From the NCBI GenBank assembly GCA_934692675.1, contig CAKUUD010000002.1, positions 173,036 through 237,035 of the forward strand: DNA of 64,000 nt, written 5' to 3'. The position numbers and the translations under genes are program-made. A model generated the notes under the pieces. That model had not been told where the DNA came from and ran no database searches. It was given only the letters and a program-made list of their open reading frames with translations. Source of the DNA: an uncultured Eubacteriales bacterium. Lineage in GTDB: Bacteria > Bacillota > Clostridia > Oscillospirales > Acutalibacteraceae. This document shows positions 46,172-56,190 of this stretch, in pieces; the stretch's first letter is position 1; every line of letters begins with the position of its first letter.

Positions 46172-48394
46172 ATGCCTGAGAAAATTAATTTTACAATGGA
46201 TCTTGAAGAATACGGTGATGTATTTGAAGCCAGTGTACCGTGGAAACATGATGATGGATATTATCTATGTATAGATAATTCAAATACATTTACCGCAAAC
46301 CAGTTGATAGCTAGTGTAAATAATAAAAAGTTACGTATTAGAAAGATAAAACCCAATGCTGCAAAAAATGAAAATTTCGAACCGACAAAATTTGATGGTG
46401 GCATTGACTGCAAAATCGTTTTAGGTACTGGATGGGGGATTTGTGATGTAGGTACTGTAAAGTTTAATGAAAATGGTGAGTCTATTGGTTTAGATGGAAA
46501 AGTGACAATGACCGTTTATGAAGATTATTTAAAAAATGTTGAGAAAGGTGAAATTGTAGCTTTTTTTGCTAACCCAAAATGGGTTTTTGTAGATACTACC
46601 ACCAGAATAGTGATTGGTGAAATTCTTCAAGGAAAAAAAGCTTTTAGTGGAGCTTGGCCAACGCCGGAAGTATTTTGTAAGAAATTAGTGGCAAAAAAAT
46701 TTAATGGAGATGCAGTCGAAGGTCAAATAAAATTTTATACAGATAATGGATTATATGTGGGGGATATTAAATTTTCTGAAAACGGCCAAGGCGTACAGCC
46801 AATAACTCCTGAAAACCTTGAATTAAATGAAGAAACGTTGAATGTTATAAATTTCAAAAAGGCGTTTTTAAGCGAATCATCAAAAAGCAAAAACAGTGAG
46901 TGGAATACCCTAACCAGCGTAAGTGCTATTTGTGAAAAAATACTTAAGGAACCAGATTTTACAACTAGATTGAAGAATCACTTAGGCTTGTATAACAAAT
47001 TTTTAAATGAGGATGGACTAAGTTATTTAAAAGATACTATGAAAATTGCTTTGCCTGAGGAGTACGAAGGAGAGGCGGCTTGCTTAGTATATTTGAATTT
47101 CTTGAATAATAATAAGAGCGATACTAATGAGAATGACGATCCGAATACTGTTTCCTTTGAAAGAGCATTTGACAATGTTTGGAGCGCATTTGATAATGGT
47201 GGTAATGGATACACTATAAGAATTAAAGGGGGAGACAGTGAGGTTGCTGCTTTTGATTATGTAATATATAAAATGATTCAAGATAAACTTATAAAAGTGT
47301 ATAAAATAAATGATCAAGGCGCTTTAATTAATCCAGGTGCCGGTAGTCATAAGTTCGAATTTGTTGAAACAGGTAAAGCCAAGTGTGGATTAACAATAGA
47401 AATTAATGACGAAGGTGAAGTAACTAAGTCAACTTGTACATCCGATAATGATGATGCGGGTTATAAAGCATTCTACGATAAAGCTAAATTAGTACTTGGA
47501 GAAGAAGAATTCAAAAAGCAAATAATAGATAGTTCTGGTAGTATGAACCCCATTGCTTCGGTCGATAAAATTGCAGAAATTCTAAAAAAGAAAGGATTGA
47601 ATCCTGAATCACGCAAATATGGCGATTTTGCAAATGCAATAGAAGAGTATATCAAAGATAAAGATAAAGAAACATTAGAAAATGCGAAAAACGAGGCTTT
47701 AAAAGATTTATACACTAGACTTGGCCAACAATTACCTAAAGGAATGACTATCGAAAAGTTTGATGCAACAGATTTCGCTAAAAAACTACTCGGTTCAAAA
47801 TTTATAACTCTATCCAAGGTTAAAAAGAAATTGAACAAATTAAACGGAGATAAAGAGAAACAGATTGAGTTACTTACCAGATTGCTAATGCGCATGAAAA
47901 GGAAAAAAGACTTTGAAAAGGAACACAAATTTGGTAAAATTCGCTATGCTCTTGGGGAAAGAGAAAAAACCGATCCCAAAATAAAAAAATGTTTTGAGGC
48001 CGCAGGCAAATATATTGTGAAAAATTATGATAAAATGACAGAAAGTACTTTAAGCAGTACATGCACAAATTTGCAAAATATTTTTAAAGATTTGGATAAA
48101 AAAGAACCATGGGCAGATAATCTGTGTGGAAATTTAAAAATGGAAATAGTAAGAAAATGTTGGATAGCACGTAATTATGAAGGCCCACGCAAAGCAATAA
48201 TGGGCATTATATTTGCAAGTATGGCGGGTATAAATGACCCTAAAGATCTTATTTGCGCGTGCGATGCTCTTAAAAAAGGTGGAATAAAGAATTCAGACCA
48301 AAAAACATTTCTTGGTCAGGCTTCTCAAATCCGTAAATCAATCAAAGCTTTATGCGGCCGTGATGGTACAACTATGCCACTCGAAAAGCTGTGA
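46172..48394 (+). CDS. Hypothetical 740-aa Lys/Glu-rich protein, no signal peptide, no recognised domain
   Basis: Long uninterrupted ORF with strong RBS; no Walker, nuclease or other motif recognised by eye. Confidence 0.5.
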   Translation: MPEKINFTMDLEEYGDVFEASVPWKHDDGYYLCIDNSNTFTANQLIASVNNKKLRIRKIKPNAAKNENFEPTKFDGGIDCKIVLGTGWGICDVGTVKFNENGESIGLDGKVTMTVYEDYLKNVEKGEIVAFFANPKWVFVDTTTRIVIGEILQGKKAFSGAWPTPEVFCKKLVAKKFNGDAVEGQIKFYTDNGLYVGDIKFSENGQGVQPITPENLELNEETLNVINFKKAFLSESSKSKNSEWNTLTSVSAICEKILKEPDFTTRLKNHLGLYNKFLNEDGLSYLKDTMKIALPEEYEGEAACLVYLNFLNNNKSDTNENDDPNTVSFERAFDNVWSAFDNGGNGYTIRIKGGDSEVAAFDYVIYKMIQDKLIKVYKINDQGALINPGAGSHKFEFVETGKAKCGLTIEINDEGEVTKSTCTSDNDDAGYKAFYDKAKLVLGEEEFKKQIIDSSGSMNPIASVDKIAEILKKKGLNPESRKYGDFANAIEEYIKDKDKETLENAKNEALKDLYTRLGQQLPKGMTIEKFDATDFAKKLLGSKFITLSKVKKKLNKLNGDKEKQIELLTRLLMRMKRKKDFEKEHKFGKIRYALGEREKTDPKIKKCFEAAGKYIVKNYDKMTESTLSSTCTNLQNIFKDLDKKEPWADNLCGNLKMEIVRKCWIARNYEGPRKAIMGIIFASMAGINDPKDLICACDALKKGGIKNSDQKTFLGQASQIRKSIKALCGRDGTTMPLEKL

Positions 48395-48546: not shown

Positions 48547-50286
48547 TTAATTAAGGGTCTTCTTTGATTTTTTCTTTACCGCTAAAAGTACAGTCAACGC
48601 AGCAAATCCCAAAGCAATCGGAAGAATATATCTTGCAATGTTATCTCCGGTTTTCGGAATGGATACTTGGTTTTTTCCGCCTATTTCTGCGCTGTTTGAG
48701 AGCTTGGTCGCTATGGCGTAGTTTGAAAAGCTTGATGTTTTAAATGTGAGCGTGTTTGTAGAAGCGTCATAAGTTGTAGGAATTACTTCATAGGTTCCGT
48801 CATGTTTTTCATGAACTAGCATTAGTTCATCGCCGACTATTCCTTTTTCGAGCTGTAAAGTTACAGTTGCTAGATCATTTAAATTATTTAGTGGATTTGA
48901 CCAAAAATCATCAGCTGTTCCTTTGTATAAAATTTGATCCAGATTAATTCCCAAATAGGATGAAATTTCGTATCCCGTTGAAATTTCTTTGAAATTAGCA
49001 ATTTGCTTTTCGGTTAAATCTGCATCTTTTACGGAAAGGAGCATCGAACCTGAATCAATTTCCGAGCCACTTAGTTTTATTGTTCCGGATTTTACTTTGT
49101 CGGATTCGGTTTTCACTTGGTCATCTACTTTTTCAAAAATTCCGCTTAAATGAACGTTTGTATCAGGCATTGTATATTCAAAAGTAGATTCATCTTTTCT
49201 TGCTACCAAGATTTCATCATTTATTTTTATGGAGATTAGTTGGTATCCGTAATGAGGCCTTAATTTAAAAATCACCTTTGAACCTGGTTTTACATCTGCC
49301 CAGCCATTATTTTTTTCAATGTCTTGACGTACATTTTTAAGTCCGATTGAATTTCCATCTGGGTCTTTAATATCCAGAATTTCGGCAGTACCGTTTTTTA
49401 ACAGTTCATTATCTTTAAGGCTTGTGTTATTATTTTTGTCCGATTCCCAGATTATGGTGCGAGAATTATTTTCGCTAGAAGGATCTTGGTTTTTTGTTAC
49501 AACTATTGTGTAACTTTCCGCAGGCTTTACCGAAAATTCAAGTATATCTTTAGTGCCTTCAGGGACGTTTATTTTCTGACCATTTACTGTTATGCTACCA
49601 ATGTAACCGTCGCCGAATGCTATTTGAATACTTATCAAATTGTAAATGTCGCCGCTGGCGTAGCCTTTTCCGGTCCCAGATATTTCCTTGGACTCATTCC
49701 CGACTCTTTCTCCGTTAAGACGTACCGTCATGCCAAAGCCATCGTAAGTTGCATTTATGGAAATATCGTCAGGGTATTCATGCGCCGGATTAGTGGGCTC
49801 TTTTACGAGTTCGATTTCTAAATTTTCACTGAATTGAGCCGGATCTAATTCAACATAAGGGTTTACACTTACGTCAAATTTAGTTTCACCTATATACAGA
49901 GTGTTATATGAAAGGTCTTCCACTCCCCAAATGTCATCGGGATCTTCTACAATAGTAGAACTTGTTGCCTTTAAATAATAATTTTCACTTTCTAGGTCAA
50001 TTTCCATGAATTGTTTTGTTATGTCTACATGTTTGTAATCTTCTGTCGGAGAATCAATTTTCTTAACAAGTTCTATGGTACCTTTTTGTGAACCTCCAGA
50101 ATAAACAATTTTTCCGTCGACTAATTCATTTTGCCCCTTGAAAAATAGTGTAGTTTTAGGTTCTGTCGCGCATACGTTTACTCTTAACATCGGTAGTACC
50201 AAATTTAATAATAAGCACAGTGCGCATAAAATAGTTTTAATTTTTTTCTTCTGCATTTTATCCCTTCTTTCTGCAACTTCTTGCAA
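48547..50286 (-). CDS. Sortase-anchored cell-surface protein (IPKTG sorting motif + TM + basic tail)
   Basis: N-terminal signal peptide; C-terminal SIPKTGDN...hydrophobic helix...KKKSKKTLN cell-wall sorting signal of the (S/P/I)PxTG Clostridial type. Confidence 0.7.
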   Translation of the reverse strand: MQEVAERRDKMQKKKIKTILCALCLLLNLVLPMLRVNVCATEPKTTLFFKGQNELVDGKIVYSGGSQKGTIELVKKIDSPTEDYKHVDITKQFMEIDLESENYYLKATSSTIVEDPDDIWGVEDLSYNTLYIGETKFDVSVNPYVELDPAQFSENLEIELVKEPTNPAHEYPDDISINATYDGFGMTVRLNGERVGNESKEISGTGKGYASGDIYNLISIQIAFGDGYIGSITVNGQKINVPEGTKDILEFSVKPAESYTIVVTKNQDPSSENNSRTIIWESDKNNNTSLKDNELLKNGTAEILDIKDPDGNSIGLKNVRQDIEKNNGWADVKPGSKVIFKLRPHYGYQLISIKINDEILVARKDESTFEYTMPDTNVHLSGIFEKVDDQVKTESDKVKSGTIKLSGSEIDSGSMLLSVKDADLTEKQIANFKEISTGYEISSYLGINLDQILYKGTADDFWSNPLNNLNDLATVTLQLEKGIVGDELMLVHEKHDGTYEVIPTTYDASTNTLTFKTSSFSNYAIATKLSNSAEIGGKNQVSIPKTGDNIARYILPIALGFAALTVLLAVKKKSKKTLN

Positions 50287-50484
50287 TCAAATTTTATCAC
50301 AATATGAAATGTTTTTGTGATATTTTATAATTTTTTAAAAAAAATTAGGATGATATTAATAAATAGCTATAAAATTTGTATGGTTAAAGCTTGGTTTACA
50401 ATAAAAAATTTAATTTAGAAATTACTTATAAATTTCTTTTTTGGTTCATATGATTGTACTATTAAGAATTAAAAGGAGCGATTT

Positions 50485-51852
50485 TTGATGATTAGTAAAA
50501 AAACAATTGGGTTACTTTCAGTCGCTTTAGCTATTCCTGCTTTTTCGAATGTGAATTTAAGTGCGATAGAGCTTGATTCTGATATGGGATACTATGAATC
50601 AGTAAAAAACGTATTGGAAGTAAATCAAAACTTGGAGGATTTGGAAAATAGTTTAAAACCTATTTTAAAAAATTTTTTTGATTCAAAAATAGAAGAATAT
50701 ATTAATTTTCTGGGCAGCAACCACGAAGACATCCAAGAGAATAAAAACTCTTTGATTGAGTGCATTGATTTTTATATAAAAAATTTTTCTCTCAGAGAAA
50801 GACATTTTGGGTACCCTGCAAATATGTGCAAAAGAACTGCATTGGTTAACATTTTCAGCTCCATTGAAAAGGAAGGATTTTTGGCTAATAACTGCGGAGA
50901 TGTAAACGAATCAGGAAATTATCGTATGGACTCAAAAGAAATTGAAAGAGATATTTTAAAGCTCTTTGCTGAGAAATTTGGAATACAGGATAATTATTGG
51001 GGATATATAACCTCAGGAGGCTCCGAAAGCAATGAATGGGGGATTAATGCTTCTTTTAAGAAAAATCCCGATGGAATACTTTATTTTTGCGAATCTGCTC
51101 ATTACAGTATATATAAAAATTCCGAATCACATAAAAGAAGAATTATCCCACAGACTTCTGAAGAGGATGAATCCATAAATTGCGAAGCTCTTTTTAAGCA
51201 AATAGAAAAAGATTACAGCCAGACAAAATCTCCGGCTAATATAATTCTTACTTGGGGCACTACCAAATATGGTTCTTGCGATGATGTTAAAAGAATAACA
51301 GATTTTCTTATAGAGAAGCACATTCCATATTATGTGCACGTAGACGCAGCACTATTCGGAGGCATTCCTAATAACCAAGTAGACGCTCCTGTTATTTCTG
51401 AGATTAAAAATCTTAATATAGATTCCATATCAACCAGCTTACATAAATATATTGGTGTTCCTACGGTTAAAAGCATTCTTTTGAGCACCAAAAAAGCATC
51501 CGGAGAACATATCGATTATATCGGTCAAACTGATAATACTACTTCAGGTTCAAGGGATATAATGCCGTTTTCTACAAGGCAACAAGTAATTGATATTTTA
51601 AATCATTCGGCTTCCGATGAATACAAGAAAAATATAGAATTTTTTGAAAAATGCCTTAAAGATAAAAGCGTTAATTTTGTAAGGAATGGAAAATCTAATA
51701 TTTTTGTTGTTGATGCACCTTCTGATGAAATCTGCAAAAAGTATCAACTATCTTGCTTTACCGATAAAGCAGGACATCAAAAATCTCATATAATAATTTT
51801 CCCGTATCAAAATCAGAATATAATAAAAGAATTAGCTGAAGAATTAAGTTAA
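50485..51852 (+). CDS. PLP-dependent group II decarboxylase of the histidine-decarboxylase family with N-terminal Sec signal peptide and about 100-aa extension
   Basis: Colinear similarity to Morganella-type HdcA blocks: HFGYP, WGYITSGGSESNEWG, LYFCESAHYS, HVDAALFG, catalytic S-x-HK (ISTSLHKYIG), TTSGSR; signal peptide MMISKKTIGLLSVALAIPAFSNVNLSA; strong RBS AAAGGAG. Confidence 0.75.
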   Translation: MMISKKTIGLLSVALAIPAFSNVNLSAIELDSDMGYYESVKNVLEVNQNLEDLENSLKPILKNFFDSKIEEYINFLGSNHEDIQENKNSLIECIDFYIKNFSLRERHFGYPANMCKRTALVNIFSSIEKEGFLANNCGDVNESGNYRMDSKEIERDILKLFAEKFGIQDNYWGYITSGGSESNEWGINASFKKNPDGILYFCESAHYSIYKNSESHKRRIIPQTSEEDESINCEALFKQIEKDYSQTKSPANIILTWGTTKYGSCDDVKRITDFLIEKHIPYYVHVDAALFGGIPNNQVDAPVISEIKNLNIDSISTSLHKYIGVPTVKSILLSTKKASGEHIDYIGQTDNTTSGSRDIMPFSTRQQVIDILNHSASDEYKKNIEFFEKCLKDKSVNFVRNGKSNIFVVDAPSDEICKKYQLSCFTDKAGHQKSHIIIFPYQNQNIIKELAEELS

Positions 51853-51876
51853 AAAATATATGAAGGAGAATATTAA

Positions 51877-53247
51877 ATGTTTAAAAAAATAGCTATGTGT
51901 TTGTGCTTTTCACTATTACTATCAGGAAAAATTTGCGCTACGGCTCCCGGCGAAGAAAATCCTAAAGATATTCCGGAAGGTTCATTTAAAATAACCCCTT
52001 GGCAAGTTGAAGGAAAAGTTGATTATGACGCTGTGCTTGACCAATTCGGAGTAGAACCTCTTACAAAAGATATAATTAATCGCTGGGAAAGCTTAATGAA
52101 AAGATCAGGGAAAAATATAAAATTGCATCCATGGGTAACACGAGGAATATTTTTTTCGCATAGGCATTTTAATGAGATTTTGGATGCTTATGAAAGTTAT
52201 TTAAACGAGAAAGAGAAAGATCCGAACGCCCAATGCCCTATATTTGTGTATACAGGCCGCGGTCCCAGCTCAGATGCCATGCATTTGGGGCATTTAGTTC
52301 CATTTATGTTTGCCAAATATTTGCAAGATGCATTTGATTGTAATGTAGTGATACAAATGTCCGATGATGAAAAATTTTATTTTAAAGATATGACGTTTAA
52401 AACAGTTTACGATTTGGGAAGAAAAAATTCAAAGGACATAATAGCTGTTGGATTTGACCCGAAGAAAACTTTTATATTTTCTAACCATGATTACCGGCTT
52501 TCATGCAGAGATTACGAAGAGCTTGTCACCGAGATGAGAAAATGCGTTACATTTCATACATTGCAAAAAGTTTTTGGATTTGATGACCAAGCAAACCCCG
52601 GAATGATAGATTGGCCGGTATATCAGTGCGCTGCGGCTTTTTATCAATCGTATCCGCATCTTTTTAAAAAACCTGCATTATGTCTTGTTGCTTATGCGAT
52701 AGATCAGGATCCGTACTTCAGACTTTCATCGCAGCTTTCAAATACTCTTAACAAGAGAATACGAAGTAAGTCGGTGTCTGCTCCGGTTAAACATACATTC
52801 AGCCCGTGCTCAATAATCGGGAAATTTATTCCTCCGCTTACTTTTAATAAAAACGGCGAAGCTAAAGAGAGAAATACAGGAAAAATGAGTTCCAGTGTGT
52901 CTGCTGAGTCTACGATATTTTTAACTGACACTCCTGCACAAATAAAGAAGAAAGTTAATAAATATGCTTTTTCCGGCTCTAGAGGCGACGGCACTTTGGA
53001 AGATCATAGACGAGTGGGCGGGGATATAACGCTGGATGTTGCGTGCCAATATTTGAACTTTTTTGAGACAGATGACGAAACGTTAAATAGCATTTACTCA
53101 GATTTTACTGCTGGTAGAATCACTTGCGGAGATACTAAAAGATTACTTATAGATAGGCTTGTTAAAATTGTAGGGGAGCATCAAAGAAGAATTTCACAAA
53201 TTACCCAAGAAGATATTGATGAATTTTATTCACAAAATAAGAAGTAA
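51877..53247 (+). CDS. Eukaryote/archaeal-type tryptophanyl-tRNA synthetase homologue carrying an N-terminal Sec signal peptide
   Basis: Extended near-identity blocks to human WARS1: RGIFFSHR, YTGRGPSSDAMHLGHLVPF (HIGH), VIQMSDDEKF, KTFIFS, HVTF, AIDQDPYFR, KMSSS (KMSAS class), IFLTDT, KKVNKYAFSG; preceded by cleavable-looking signal peptide MFKKIAMCLCFSLLLSGKICA and RBS GAAGGAG. Confidence 0.8.
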   Translation: MFKKIAMCLCFSLLLSGKICATAPGEENPKDIPEGSFKITPWQVEGKVDYDAVLDQFGVEPLTKDIINRWESLMKRSGKNIKLHPWVTRGIFFSHRHFNEILDAYESYLNEKEKDPNAQCPIFVYTGRGPSSDAMHLGHLVPFMFAKYLQDAFDCNVVIQMSDDEKFYFKDMTFKTVYDLGRKNSKDIIAVGFDPKKTFIFSNHDYRLSCRDYEELVTEMRKCVTFHTLQKVFGFDDQANPGMIDWPVYQCAAAFYQSYPHLFKKPALCLVAYAIDQDPYFRLSSQLSNTLNKRIRSKSVSAPVKHTFSPCSIIGKFIPPLTFNKNGEAKERNTGKMSSSVSAESTIFLTDTPAQIKKKVNKYAFSGSRGDGTLEDHRRVGGDITLDVACQYLNFFETDDETLNSIYSDFTAGRITCGDTKRLLIDRLVKIVGEHQRRISQITQEDIDEFYSQNKK

Positions 53248-53376
53248 ATATTAAATTTTAAATTTGTATTGAAAAACATATTTTCATGTGGTAATATTTT
53301 CCCGAATTTACAAAGAAAGGAAATTTGCCATGCAATTGTTAATTTGTGACGTAAAATTTAATAGCTGGCAAAGCTG

Positions 53377-53505
53377 CTACAAATAAGATATTTGTAGTGG
53401 ACCTTTTGACTGCGCCGCTTACAGGTATCTTAAAAATATCTGTAGCGGCTTTTATATTTTAAGAAAGCCGAAACGTATAAAATCGTTTGGGCTTTTTATT
53501 TTTTT
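53377..53505 (+). promoter_or_regulatory. Structured leader with a perfect hairpin and two tandem intrinsic-terminator-like hairpins upstream of the TrpXYZ-like ABC operon (candidate attenuator/riboregulator)
   Basis: Hairpin CTACAAAT-aagat-ATTTGTAG (53377-53397); terminator GCCGCTTACAG...CTGTAGCGGC + U-tract (53414-53460); second GCCGAAACG...CGTTTGGGC + U-tract (53467-53505); hairpin 3' arm and terminator share ATxTGTAGxGG, suggesting alternative pairing. Confidence 0.4.
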
Positions 53506-53607
53506 GGAGGTAGATAAAGTATTTATAGGTTACGCCTTACAATAGTTTGGGGATATAATAAAAAATTTTGATTAGTGAAAGTTATAAATTAAGAGGTGTA
53601 AATTAAA

Positions 53608-54567
53608 ATGAAGAAACTTTTTAAATTGATATTTTTATTACCAATTTTGTCTTCGATATTTTTTATAAGCTGCAAAAAAGATGATTCCAAAATTAAAATA
53701 GGTATAATGCAAATCGTAGAGCATGAATCTCTTGACAGCGCCAGGCAAGGATTTATAGATGAGCTTGAAAATTTGGGGTATGAACAGGGTAAAAACGTAG
53801 AATTTGACATTCAAATTGCATCGGGGGACATTTCAAACTGCGTTACTATAGCCGAAAAATTTGTGAATGACAAAAAAGATATTGTTTTAGCTATTTCAAC
53901 CCCTTGTGCACAAACGATGGCAAATGCCACAAAAGATATCCCTATTTTAGTGGCGGCTGTAACAGATTTTGAGGGGCTCGGGATTATAAATTCCGAAGAA
54001 AAGCCCGGAAAAAATGTAACAGGAGTATCGGACCTTGCGCCTACGGATAAAATAATTTCTTTGATTAAAAAATTAAAGCCGGATTCTAAAAAAGTTGGAG
54101 TTTTATACTCCGTAACGGATTCCAGTCCTCAGTATCAAGCAAAGATCGCACAGCAAGAAATAAAAAAACTTGGTATGCAGTGCAAATCCGCAAGTGTTTC
54201 TCAAATTAATGAGGTTGAACAAGTGGCCGAAAATCTGGCAAAAGATGTCGATGCTCTCTATGCGCCGGTAGACAAAATTACTTTCTCCACGATGCCAAAA
54301 ATTTCACAAATATTTTTAAAAAATAAAAAATTTGTTGTTTGTGCGGAAGACAATATGCTCTCCAAAGGTGCAATTGCAACATACGGGATTGATTACTATG
54401 AATTAGGAAAAATTGTGGCTTCTCAGGCGTCAAAAATTTTGAAAGGGGAAGAAAAAATAGAAAACATTCCGATTGAACATATACGAAATGCGAAACTTAA
54501 TTTAAATTATGATATTGCCGAAAAACTTGGTATAGATGTTACAAAAATTTTGAAAGGAGAAAGCTGA
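53608..54567 (+). CDS. ABC transporter substrate-binding lipoprotein, PF04392 (ABC_sub_bind / TrpX-like) family
   Basis: Lipobox (FFISC); IGIMQIVEHESLDSARQGFIDEL N-terminal block typical of PF04392 binding proteins. Confidence 0.7.
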   Translation: MKKLFKLIFLLPILSSIFFISCKKDDSKIKIGIMQIVEHESLDSARQGFIDELENLGYEQGKNVEFDIQIASGDISNCVTIAEKFVNDKKDIVLAISTPCAQTMANATKDIPILVAAVTDFEGLGIINSEEKPGKNVTGVSDLAPTDKIISLIKKLKPDSKKVGVLYSVTDSSPQYQAKIAQQEIKKLGMQCKSASVSQINEVEQVAENLAKDVDALYAPVDKITFSTMPKISQIFLKNKKFVVCAEDNMLSKGAIATYGIDYYELGKIVASQASKILKGEEKIENIPIEHIRNAKLNLNYDIAEKLGIDVTKILKGES

Positions 54568-55442
54568 TGGATATTATAATTTCAACTATATTTCAGGGGT
54601 TAATTTATTCCGTTTTGGGCATGGGTGTGTTCATAGCGTTTAGGATTTTAAATTTTGCTGATATGACCGCTGAAGGGAGCTTTACTCTCGGTGGAAGCAT
54701 TTGCGCAGTTATGATTTTGCACGGAGTGCATCCTGCAATCAGTATAGTTGTTGCCGGGCTTTTTGGAACTTTAGCCGGATTTTTTACCGGATTCTTAAAT
54801 ACTAAACTTAAAATTCAAGGTATACTCTCGGGAATTTTAGTAATGATTTCACTTTATTCCGTTAACCTGAGAATTATGAGGAAAGCTAATTTATCAATTT
54901 TAGGGAAAGAAACTATTTTTAAATTTAATGGAAGTTCGAATATTACTAATTTTATTTTCGGAATATGCATATGCGGATTTTTGATATTAATTTTGTGGCT
55001 GTTTTTTAAAACAAGACTTGGGCTTACAATAAAAGCTACTGGCGATAATGAACAAATGGCTAAATCTTTGGAAGTAAATACGGATTTTAGTAAAATTTTT
55101 GCACTTATGATAAGTAGTTTTTTATGCGCCTTATCAGGTGCTCTGGTGGTAGAAAATCAGGGCTATTCCGACGTTAACATGGGCGTGGGAGTGATTGTAA
55201 TTGCACTTTCGTCAATTGTTATAGGCGAAGCCATTGTAAAAAAGGATTCAATAATATCCAAATTAATAGGCGTGGTTTTGGGTACGATTTGTTATAAATT
55301 TATGATTTATTTTGTTCTGAGGATGGGTATGAACCCTGGCGATTTAAAATTTTTCACTGCACTTATTGCCGCTGTTCTATTGGGCCTGCCGAACATTCAA
55401 AAAAATTTTAAAGGAGTGAAGAATAAAAATGTTGAAGCTTAA
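54567..55442 (+). CDS. ABC transporter permease (TrpY-like)
   Basis: 291 aa polytopic; coupled to binding-protein and ATPase genes. Confidence 0.7.
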   Translation: MDIIISTIFQGLIYSVLGMGVFIAFRILNFADMTAEGSFTLGGSICAVMILHGVHPAISIVVAGLFGTLAGFFTGFLNTKLKIQGILSGILVMISLYSVNLRIMRKANLSILGKETIFKFNGSSNITNFIFGICICGFLILILWLFFKTRLGLTIKATGDNEQMAKSLEVNTDFSKIFALMISSFLCALSGALVVENQGYSDVNMGVGVIVIALSSIVIGEAIVKKDSIISKLIGVVLGTICYKFMIYFVLRMGMNPGDLKFFTALIAAVLLGLPNIQKNFKGVKNKNVEA

Positions 55443-56190
55443 AGAAATACACAAAAGTTTTGGAGAAGACTCTTCAAATAAAAAAGTTATTTTTGAAGAA
55501 TTTAATCTAGATATAAAAAGAGGAGAATTCGTTACGGTAATTGGAGGTAATGGGTGTGGCAAATCCACTCTTATGAATTTGATTTCAGGATCTGTTTTTC
55601 CTAAAAAAGGTCGAATATTTATAGATGGAAAAGATGTTACTTATATGCCCGAACACGAAAGAGCCAAGATGATAGGGCGGGTGTTCCAAGATCCTCTGAG
55701 AGGCACTGCGCCTAATCTTACTGTTGAAGAAAATTTATCTTTGGCGTTTTTAAAAGGCGAAAAAAAAGGATTGAAATTCAGCATAAACAAAAATAGAAGA
55801 GAAATTTTAAAAGAAAAACTAAAATCACTTAATTTAGGCCTGGAGAATCGTCTGGATGCAAAAATGGGGCTCCTTTCCGGAGGACAGAGGCAAGCAATTA
55901 CACTTCTCATGGCTACTTTAAAGAAACCTAAAATTCTTCTTTTGGATGAGCATACAGCAGCTTTGGATCCTAAGTCTTCGGAAAAAATACTTGAAATAAC
56001 AGAAAGGATAGCGTCTGATCCTGAAATTACAACTCTAATGATCACACATAATATAAGAGATTCGCTTAAAATAGGTACACGTACCATTATGCTTAATTTG
56101 GGGAAGGTGGTAATAGATTTGAACGGAGAATACAGAAAAATTATGAGCTCCGAAAAGTTGCAAAAATTATTTGATGATATCAATTATTAG
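55429..56190 (+). CDS. ABC transporter ATP-binding protein (TrpZ-like)
   Basis: Walker A GGNGCGKST, LSGGQRQ, Walker B LLLDEHTAALD. Confidence 0.85.
   Translation: MLKLKEIHKSFGEDSSNKKVIFEEFNLDIKRGEFVTVIGGNGCGKSTLMNLISGSVFPKKGRIFIDGKDVTYMPEHERAKMIGRVFQDPLRGTAPNLTVEENLSLAFLKGEKKGLKFSINKNRREILKEKLKSLNLGLENRLDAKMGLLSGGQRQAITLLMATLKKPKILLLDEHTAALDPKSSEKILEITERIASDPEITTLMITHNIRDSLKIGTRTIMLNLGKVVIDLNGEYRKIMSSEKLQKLFDDINY

Follow-up and report, generated by a model that had tools for sequence, protein, structure and literature searches.

Why should an uncultured gut bacterium of the Clostridia carry, directly behind a decarboxylase gene, a tryptophanyl-tRNA synthetase (TrpRS) of the eukaryotic type, and why should both proteins begin with what looks like a secretion leader? 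The question is raised by a stretch of 64,000 nucleotides, hereafter the window (contig CAKUUD010000002.1 of assembly GCA_934692675.1, positions 173,036 to 237,035 of the forward strand), from an Eubacteriales bacterium of the Acutalibacteraceae. Two co-oriented genes separated by 24 nt encode a group II decarboxylase dependent on pyridoxal phosphate (PLP) at 50485-51852 and the TrpRS at 51877-53247, both open reading frames (ORFs) lying exactly where a preliminary description of the window, made from its letters, had located them. According to the reading developed here, to which we give a probability of roughly 0.45, the pair represents an exported, tryptophan-specific variant of those loci in which a decarboxylase is accompanied by its cognate aminoacyl-tRNA synthetase (aaRS), the TrpRS serving as a partner of the decarboxylase. 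The pair comprises the following features:

50473..50478, forward strand: Shine-Dalgarno sequence AAGGAG of the decarboxylase gene, 9 nt 5' of the ATG at 50488 and 6 nt 5' of the TTG at 50485
50485..51852, forward strand: group II PLP decarboxylase of 455 amino acids (aa), similar to histidine decarboxylase (HDC) and serine/alanine decarboxylases according to PF00282, fold and family alignment; likely start ATG 50488
50488..50565, forward strand: predicted Sec-type leader of the decarboxylase, MISKKTIGLLSVALAIPAFSNVNLSA followed by IELD, from heuristic and ortholog comparison
51445..51447, forward strand: codon of the PLP-binding lysine K321 in the motif S-L-H-K-Y, from alignment with the HDC lysine
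51863..51868, forward strand: Shine-Dalgarno sequence AAGGAG of the TrpRS gene, 8 nt 5' of ATG 51877, the sole in-frame start with such a sequence
51877..53247, forward strand: eukaryote-type TrpRS of 456 aa, from profiles, alignment with PDB sequences and fold
51877..51939, forward strand: predicted Sec-type leader of the TrpRS, MFKKIAMCLCFSLLLSGKICA followed by TAP, from heuristic and clade comparison
51940..51984, forward strand: variable Pro/Glu-rich linker between leader and fold (TrpRS residues 22-36), variable among orthologs and disordered in the model
52282..52293, forward strand: HIGH motif H-L-G-H (TrpRS residues 136-139), from alignment; H136, G138 and H139 are invariant
52882..52896, forward strand: KMSKS-class motif K-M-S-S-S (TrpRS residues 336-340), from alignment, with a clade-specific insertion of ~9 aa just before it

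The TrpRS is, on sequence and modelled fold, of the eukaryotic and not of the bacterial type, as the preliminary description had proposed, with intact catalytic motifs and a predicted activity. Among the PDB sequences, matches at E<=1e-10 consisted of eukaryotic and archaeal-type TrpRS only, with no bacterial-type enzyme, and the best solved structure was human cytoplasmic TrpRS (WARS1), residues 38-454 aligning with human residues 84-464 at 305 bits and 40% identity. PF00579 is matched with 58 bits and TIGR00233 (trpS) with 223 bits, above its cutoff of 176.75; the best profile match is provided by the archaeal/eukaryotic PRK12285 models (304 bits, under their cutoffs of 478 and 644), and the TrpRS-decarboxylase fusions of ciliates introduced below likewise score under these cutoffs. 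The AlphaFold (AF2) model, with a mean pLDDT (predicted local distance difference test) of 84.8 and a predicted template modelling (TM) score of 0.85, superposes on human TrpRS with TM 0.92-0.93 and a root mean square deviation of ~2.1 A, and on human and yeast TrpRS taken together with TM 0.86-0.93, the first bacterial-type TrpRS occurring only at rank 50 of the fold search; entry 1r6u, entitled 'active fragment with cytokine activity', fits with TM 0.92. The HLGH and KMSSS motifs, found at the residues listed above in agreement with the preliminary description, correspond in the alignment to HVGH and KMSAS of the human enzyme and are invariant among the 31 sequences compared.

The same conservation extends to the substrate sites. 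Human residues Y159, Q194, E199, Q284 and Q313, which we take to be the tryptophan-pocket (Trp/ATP-site) residues, have identical counterparts in the alignment blocks YTGRG, VIQMSDDEK, WPVYQ and AIDQD. Human TrpRS contacts the anticodon through F377, S378, G380, R381, H387, G428 and K431, and the discriminator A73 through D99, K102 and R106 (PMC1538984). Of the anticodon contacts, F377, S378, R381, H387, G428 and K431, the last being universally conserved, are kept and do not vary within the clade, whereas Ser stands in place of G380; of the three A73 contacts, two are altered, K102 being Ala and R106 Gln. Both the eukaryote-specific N-terminal hairpin/helix alpha1' element and the alpha11 insertion of the anticodon domain are present, in addition to three clade-specific insertions located after AYE, before the 'PCSIIGKF' strand and before KMSSS, the last one (~9 aa) being modelled with a pLDDT of ~56. 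As estimated from ratios of nonsynonymous to synonymous change (dN/dS) of 0.016-0.053 for the mature TrpRS and 0.033-0.047 for the mature decarboxylase, both genes are under strong purifying selection.

The clade was found only in 12 species-level metagenome-assembled genomes (MAGs) of uncultured gut Clostridia, assigned to Eubacteriales, Acutalibacteraceae, Ruminococcaceae or Oscillospiraceae and stemming from Hadza and other human-gut projects, on contigs of up to 486 kb. The decarboxylase gene lies directly 5' of the TrpRS gene in 10 of the 12 loci, and an ABC transporter operon of the TrpX-like type comes next in seven. A contaminated or chimeric assembly was rejected in view of the recurrence of the TrpRS gene on bacterial contigs of 139-486 kb in many samples, its Shine-Dalgarno sequence, its lack of introns and its neighbour-like composition. 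Outside the clade, the nearest TrpRS relatives are fusion proteins of ~790 aa, with an N-terminal TrpRS and a C-terminal group II decarboxylase, which share 52-55% identity with it, while the next prokaryotic relatives, from Chlamydiae, Verrucomicrobia and archaea, reach 33-39%. The resemblance to human WARS1 stated in the preliminary description is thus real among solved structures, and reflects these only, the 40% identity being exceeded by that to the fusions. Examples of the latter are a protein of 796 aa (P0038, positions 169-2559 of L048) and P0035 (positions 10001-11833 of L049), and at least 15 such clusters were distinguished (P0033-P0060).

Of the contigs encoding fusions, one terminates in (GGGGATT)n, and Arf/Ras, Longin and RRM genes are located on another. 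Gut trichostome ciliates, whose macronuclear chromosomes are small, have (CCCCAAT)n as their telomere repeat (PMC10978948; bioRxiv 10.1101/2022.01.05.474053), and the fusions are assigned, from their sequences and contigs, to such ciliates. A neighbour-joining tree of TrpRS recovered the Clostridial clade with 94% bootstrap support and the clade plus the fusions with 57%, apart from the archaeal, chlamydial and bacterial-type enzymes; such trees are rough, and that of TrpRS, which roots badly on the long bacterial-type branch, was used only alongside the ranking by bit score. The TrpRS was most likely gained by gut Clostridia from a gut ciliate-like eukaryote, a direction which follows by parsimony from the eukaryotic type of the enzyme. 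The transfer from a eukaryote envisaged in the preliminary description is therefore supported, with a gut ciliate instead of an animal host as its most likely source. A decaying copy of the pair, located on a conjugative element with a VirD4-like protein, a relaxase and a recombinase (L012, 9686-14717), comprises a 5'-truncated TrpRS gene beside a transposase fragment and a decarboxylase gene split into two ORFs, with an intact trpB between them; this copy suggests that the module has moved between gut Clostridia.

The leaders distinguish this clade from nearly all its relatives. They were scored by a heuristic (n-region with K/R, hydrophobic h-region, small-x-small site) combined with comparative evidence. 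Both proteins exhibit a charged n-region, an h-region of at least 10 residues and small residues at positions -3 and -1, outside the folded domain, as in Sec-type leaders cleaved by signal peptidase I; by inspection, neither possesses a twin-arginine consensus or a lipobox, and Tat and lipoprotein signals were rejected for both. Leaders occur in 27 of 30 close-clade TrpRS members versus one of 90 other matches, the exception being a truncated clade member, and in nearly all TrpRS-linked decarboxylase orthologs (P0122-P0131) versus none of 106 others. Their sequences diverge strongly between species (N-terminal dN/dS 0.18-0.73), while the K/R residues, the hydrophobic core and the AxA-like site are kept in every ortholog, followed by a variable Pro/Glu/Asp/Ser linker. 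In the AlphaFold models, TrpRS residues 1-34 and decarboxylase residues 1-35 have pLDDT values below 50 and lie outside the fold. Owing to the location of the only Shine-Dalgarno sequence, the strong ribosome-binding site already pointed out for this start, at codon 1, and to the lack of any in-frame start between codon 9 and the invariant TPW (residue 40), the TrpRS leader must be translated in the window; a leader-skipping start is likewise absent in L001 and L004. A neighbouring LPXTG-type protein has a similar leader end (NVCA/TEP, compared to KICA/TAP in the TrpRS). Since the organism has the traits of a monoderm spore-former (the LPXTG protein, a GerA/B/C operon, an amidase with a SPOR domain), Sec export would amount to release outside the cell. 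The signal peptides announced in the preliminary description are accordingly confirmed as conserved, clade-specific, signal-peptide-like leaders, and both proteins are probably exported, export itself being a prediction.

The three most divergent TrpRS of the clade (P0027, P0029, P0030) are leaderless, which suggests that the acquisition of the gene came first and the gain of the leader later. In most orthologs, a Met-Asp/Gln-Pro string stands right after the cleavage site (AxA/MDP; TrpRS P0002-P0028, decarboxylases P0130-P0132), and in some cases the strings of the two proteins are nearly identical (SSAFAMDPDEK and SEAFAMDPNSGDKK). This methionine is probably the ancestral start, Thr occupying its site in the window TrpRS, and the AxA/MDP string could be a vestige of that start, an alternative start permitting dual localisation, or a sign that the leader was copied from one gene to the other. 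In a Hadza MAG (L006, 2700-2900), a rearrangement has deprived the TrpRS gene of its decarboxylase neighbour and of the 5' half of its leader, leaving a remnant '...LIVTPVKA/MDPNE' after stop codons, with an intact ORF possible from a GTG or from the +1 Met. Either this copy has reverted naturally to a leaderless state, or it has arisen as an artefact of assembly.

The partner enzyme matches PF00282 with 43 bits, above the cutoff of 27, and its model resembles Ala, Ser and His decarboxylases (TM 0.69-0.83); the structure search confirmed the decarboxylase fold and gave no substrate. K321 of the motif SLHKY aligns with the catalytic lysine of HDC, whose retention had been correctly recognized, and is invariant, together with D287 and H206, in the family alignment A2. 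The label of a Gram-negative, HdcA-type HDC was discarded: the enzyme reaches 198 bits with the HDC equivalog NF002748 (cutoff 305) and lies as close to the Ser/Ala decarboxylases of plants as to Photobacterium HDC, so that its description as Morganella-HdcA-like was overstated. The N-terminal extension of about 100 aa attributed to it exists, and resolves into a leader of ~26-35 aa and ~55-70 aa of helices. The family to which it belongs is large and consists mostly of proteins of ~390 aa in Clostridia, and the decarboxylase of the locus is of bacterial origin. Its derivation from the ciliate fusion was ruled out, as it shares ~31% identity with the decarboxylase half of the latter, which branches outside the bacterial family; in the decarboxylase tree, these ciliate halves form the nearest outgroup.

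From the gene context, we infer that the substrate of the decarboxylase may be tryptophan. Relatives of the enzyme cluster with TrpRS and tRNA-Trp genes, which bears out the tryptophan theme perceived in the preliminary description. In L050 (2047-5945), a single co-oriented block contains two tandem tRNA-Trp(CCA) genes, a bacterial trpS, a leaderless decarboxylase, a class I S-adenosylmethionine (SAM) methyltransferase and a YbaK-like deacylase. In L052, L053, L054 and L063, an M20 peptidase, a GNAT protein, the decarboxylase, a degenerate TrpRS paralog, a tRNA-Trp(CCA) and an equivalog-grade trpS occur together; L052 (4189-10998) has a TrpRS-like paralog of 307 aa and, 3' of the cluster, a 36-aa ORF and a radical-SAM/SPASM enzyme. 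L064 associates the decarboxylase with tRNA-Trp, M20, GNAT and trpS, and L060 with GNAT, tRNA-Trp and M20. The partner TrpRSs of L050 and L052 score as ordinary equivalog trpS, and those tRNA-Trp genes of the clusters that could be read have G73. In the decarboxylase tree, members linked to tryptophan are found on several deep branches and in the group sister to the window clade, and the trpB lying between the pair genes in L012 provides a further link to tryptophan. Around more distant decarboxylases (24-30% identical), a TrpRS was found near none of ~70 loci. Tryptamine is a competitive inhibitor of TrpRS (PMC12607914), for which reason the intracellular clusters have a simple logic, that of protecting the charging of tRNA-Trp. 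The L052-type cluster could be a natural-product pathway dependent on tRNA-Trp or derived from tryptamine. Many of the protist TrpRSs among the matches carry a fused PF04073 (YbaK-like) domain and, taken together, L050 and the protist fusions suggest that a TrpRS, an editing domain and a decarboxylase may recur in association with one another.

Around the pair, three other features were delineated:

50304..50331, forward strand: promoter-like site 5' of the pair, ATGAAA-16-TATAAT, 10/12 consensus matches, weak evidence
53418..53504, forward strand: two-hairpin leader RNA ending in an intrinsic terminator, with a sub-threshold match to the Rfam trpB motif
53608..56190, forward strand: TrpX-like ABC importer made of a lipoprotein binding protein (53608-54567), a permease (54567-55442) and an ATPase (55429-56190)

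The number of promoter-like sites in the region equals the shuffle expectation. The leader RNA reported beside the pair does occur, as a weak element resembling the trpB motif, to be attributed to the ABC operon and not to the pair: it scores 34.4 bits against RF04312 (gathering score 59), and the element at the same position in L010 (2362-2442) scores 40.8 bits, also below threshold. The trpB motif is an orphan riboswitch candidate located mostly 5' of uncharacterised amino-acid ABC transporters in Firmicutes (PMC11109978), and the two hairpins, the terminator and the position in the 5' untranslated region of an ABC transporter fit its published description. The binding protein matches PF04392 with 248 bits, in agreement with the preliminary description, and the NF041285 TrpX model with 289 bits, below the cutoff of 390, so that the transporter is to be called TrpX-like; its nature would suggest that the trpB motif binds tryptophan or a related compound. 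In three sister species (L004, L005, L007), an AEC ('auxin efflux carrier') transporter and a bacterial trpS lie 5' of the pair (L004, 6688-8508), and this carrier is a candidate for the exporter or antiporter that an indole-amine locus would otherwise lack. On the 5' side of the pair, the window encodes a 740-aa protein devoid of any Pfam match (46172-48394, forward strand) and a 579-aa LPXTG-like surface protein with an 'IPKTGD' anchor (48547-50286, reverse strand), whose InlB B-repeat match is weak; the latter shares 73% identity with its L001 counterpart, compared to 93-98% for the pair, and thus evolves much faster.

Put together, the preferred reading of an exported decarboxylase with its TrpRS partner would operate as follows. 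Both proteins would be translocated by Sec, cleaved at ICA/TAP (TrpRS) and LSA/IEL (decarboxylase), and released from the monoderm cell, and the decarboxylase would then convert luminal L-tryptophan, or a close analogue, into the corresponding amine (tryptamine) outside the cell. Behind its trpB-motif-like leader, the TrpX-type importer would secure the tryptophan needed by the cell itself. The TrpRS would act as a tryptophan-binding partner, coupled to the decarboxylase as in the ciliate fusion and gating decarboxylation by the supply of tryptophan; this partner role is the least-supported step of the proposal. A comparable task, that of sensing the tyrosine pool, has long been proposed for the TyrS of tyramine loci, although this role is unproven (PMC3315439).

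Several points weigh against this proposal. If the TrpRS were a mere binding partner, its very strong constraint over the whole protein, down to the anticodon contacts, would be left unexplained. An extracellular TrpRS is deprived of tRNA and has little ATP, and an extracellular PLP enzyme must obtain its cofactor outside. A secreted tryptophan decarboxylase beside a tryptophan importer looks self-defeating unless the affinities of the two differ greatly. The nearest characterised (solved) relatives of the decarboxylase act on His, Ser or Ala, and the known gut tryptophan decarboxylase is 17-18% identical to it and occupies rank 16 of the fold search. Close family members of L051, L055-L059, L061, L062 and L147 (Weissella) lack tryptophan-related neighbours and, in the absence of TrpRS or tRNA-Trp genes from these loci, the idea that the entire family is linked to tryptophan was rejected. 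Neither a T-box nor any other known leader of the pair was found at the gathering threshold in the window, nor at E<=1 within 50200-53700, where the trpB-motif-like element of the ABC operon gave the sole match, and the window has no precursor/amine antiporter, the neighbour being an ABC importer. Lastly, bacterial trpS genes are missing from the 64-kb window and from the surrounding 10 kb on either side in L001-L003 and L008-L010.

Depending on whether the proteins are thought to act on a eukaryote or to stay within the cell, two quite different explanations compete with it. If the pair were directed at the host or another eukaryote, the secreted TrpRS would signal like human mini/T2-TrpRS or the threonyl-tRNA synthetase (ThrRS) of Akkermansia, with tryptamine as a second signal and TrpRS catalysis irrelevant outside; more broadly, the ciliate-derived TrpRS and the decarboxylase would form a tryptophan-themed secretome supplying a mini-TrpRS-like ligand, or acting on eukaryotic tRNA-Trp or tryptophan pools, plus tryptamine. 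We consider such mimicry unlikely, and the broader version equally so, in spite of the conserved leaders, the human-gut habitat, a mature TrpRS which starts near human residue 84, like mini/T2 and without the WHEP domain, the fit of its model to the cytokine-active fragment 1r6u, and the presence of the alpha11 insertion, on which angiostatic activity is reported to depend critically (PMC1538984; title of 1ulh). A precedent is offered by a secreted gut-bacterial aaRS acting on the host, as mentioned in a passage of PMC10998920 citing Kim 2023. The closest relatives are nevertheless those of ciliates (52-55%), with animals at only 40%, and nothing indicates a convergence on the host protein. 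Human residues 1-83, WHEP included, have no equivalent in this TrpRS, and that region is needed for TLR4-MD2 signalling. Besides, the constraint extends to active-site and anticodon residues and not to surfaces alone, and the pairing predates export, because leaderless intracellular clusters and ciliate fusions also have it; nor does the pairing need host mimicry to be explained, as tyramine and histamine loci are already known to combine a decarboxylase with its cognate aaRS (PMC3315439). It is no more credible that the leaders are inefficient or, in some species, bypassed, and that a cytoplasmic biogenic-amine locus uses the extra TrpRS to keep tRNA-Trp charged despite tryptophan depletion and tryptamine. 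Both enzymes need cytoplasmic ATP, tRNA or PLP, a synthetase at work is typically constrained over the whole protein down to the anticodon contacts, as is the case here, tryptamine inhibits TrpRS competitively (PMC12607914), and the extra tRNA-Trp genes of leaderless clusters would fit a boost to charging; the Met following the cleavage site (A/MDP) in most orthologs offers a possible internal start, and P0027, P0029, P0030 and the rearranged L006 copy dispense with the leader. However, the leader-skipping start is absent in the window, L001 and L004, with Thr at the +1 Met site in the window; leaders have been gained on both proteins in this clade only and have kept their n/h/c shape through saturating divergence; the K/R-rich N-terminus and the positive-inside rule put the catalytic domain outside; and a eukaryote-type TrpRS is unlikely to charge a bacterial G73 tRNA-Trp efficiently.

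Two further explanations give the TrpRS a catalytic task. In a two-enzyme biosynthesis, which is quite unlikely, TrpRS-activated tryptophan (Trp-AMP or Trp-tRNA) would be passed to the amine released by the decarboxylase, or to another acceptor, yielding a tryptophanyl-amide or a related product. The aaRS-like ligase MshC and tRNA-dependent transferases of the GNAT/Fem type are analogues, the ciliate fusion implies channelling between both activities, and the leaderless clusters add a GNAT, an M20 peptidase, a degenerate TrpRS paralog, tRNA-Trp and the radical-SAM/SPASM enzyme with its 36-aa ORF. The window locus, though, has neither these accessory genes nor a tRNA-Trp, the GNATs are generic acetyltransferase-family matches with no evidence of the Fem type, the partner TrpRSs of L050 and L052 are ordinary equivalog trpS, and outside the cell tRNA is absent and ATP scarce. 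The last explanation, that this TrpRS is the sole one of the cell by replacement, as in Chlamydiae or bacteria of the candidate phyla radiation, with an incidental leader, is very improbable. The enzyme does look fully competent from its residues, an archaeal/eukaryote-type TrpRS is the sole enzyme in some bacteria (L013-L027; PMC5370408), and the window has no bacterial trpS. The sister species L004, L005 and L007, however, contain a leaderless ordinary bacterial trpS (TIGR00233, 276 bits) directly 5' of the leader-bearing pair, which shows, on the point of a separate trpS raised in the preliminary description, that the lineage possesses more than one kind; this Oscillospirales-type gene is the common, indeed ubiquitous, trpS of related Clostridia, two copies having been located, with a sortase-def-trpS-mur neighbourhood, in other MAGs. 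A synthetase that is the only one of the cytoplasm could not bear an obligatory secretion leader, and the decaying or rearranged copies of L012 and L006 are unexpected for an essential gene. Eukaryotic and bacterial TrpRS cross-charge tRNA-Trp inefficiently, owing to A73/G1:C72 versus G73/A1:U72 (PMC12135181, PMC1538984). The obligatory leader, the trpS of the sister species, the G73 of the cluster tRNA-Trp genes and this poor cross-charging together argue that the eukaryote-type TrpRS would not be the housekeeping synthetase.

The locus is of interest on several counts. Microbial tryptamine is an active host signal, and only one gut decarboxylase family is known to make it; the locus points to a second candidate family, marked by linked TrpRS and tRNA-Trp genes. 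It extends the unexplained association of a decarboxylase with its cognate aaRS from tyrosine and histidine to tryptophan and, through the ciliate fusions, across domains of life, and both the tryptophan loci and these fusions provide a fresh handle on what the aaRS of such clusters does. It also represents a rare, well-supported candidate for the transfer of an aaRS from a eukaryote to a bacterium within the gut ecosystem. If export is true, a bacterial aaRS with a classical signal peptide has been under long purifying selection and selected for a job outside translation. The pairing as such is already known; the tryptophan version, the ciliate-type xenolog, the leaders on both proteins, the ciliate fusions and the tRNA-Trp clusters appear to be undescribed in the open-access full-text literature.

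Among the known systems, the tyrS-tdcA-tyrP-nhaC and hdcA-hisS loci of lactic acid bacteria come closest in design, since in them too the decarboxylase adjoins an aaRS, the latter being separate there from the housekeeping enzyme; of the present pair, the sister species likewise have a separate ordinary trpS. The presence of an aaRS gene next to that of the decarboxylase has been called 'a general feature' of tyramine and histamine clusters, in which tyrS-1 is distinct from the housekeeping tyrS-2 (PMC3315439). In the tyrS-tdcA and hisS-hdcA loci both enzymes share their amino acid, whereas the use of tryptophan is suggested here by context. The present locus further differs from them by its presumed amino acid, its horizontally acquired eukaryote-type aaRS, the leaders on both proteins, and an ABC importer with a trpB-motif-like leader in place of a T-box and an antiporter; compared to TdcA or the pyruvoyl-type HdcA, its decarboxylase belongs to group II and resembles HDC and serine decarboxylases. 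Human WARS1 and its mini/T2 fragments share with the TrpRS the fold, the Trp/ATP-site residues, most tRNA contacts and a mature N-terminus near residue 84, while the bacterial protein lacks WHEP and exhibits a predicted cleavable Sec-type leader, the three insertions and the changes G380S, K102A and R106Q. The human enzyme, devoid of a signal peptide, is secreted by an unconventional route.

The ciliate fusions have the closest TrpRS, a group II decarboxylase partner and the gut habitat in common with the pair, from which they differ as single leaderless polypeptides, TrpRS first and decarboxylase second, in eukaryotic hosts, with a decarboxylase half only ~31% identical. The secreted ThrRS of Akkermansia is similarly a gut-bacterial aaRS acting outside the cell, according to the passage of PMC10998920 that cites Kim et al. 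2023. In contrast to the TrpRS, it belongs to another aaRS class, handles another amino acid and is the bacterium's own enzyme, not a eukaryote-type xenolog. To our knowledge, no decarboxylase is paired with it. The tryptophan decarboxylases of Ruminococcus gnavus and Clostridium sporogenes (RUMGNA_01526 type), which are group II PLP enzymes of gut Firmicutes and produce tryptamine, would be functional analogues of the locus decarboxylase if tryptophan is indeed its substrate. No TrpRS is known to us to be linked to them; they consist of ~490 aa, share the 17-18% identity with it already given and form another subfamily.

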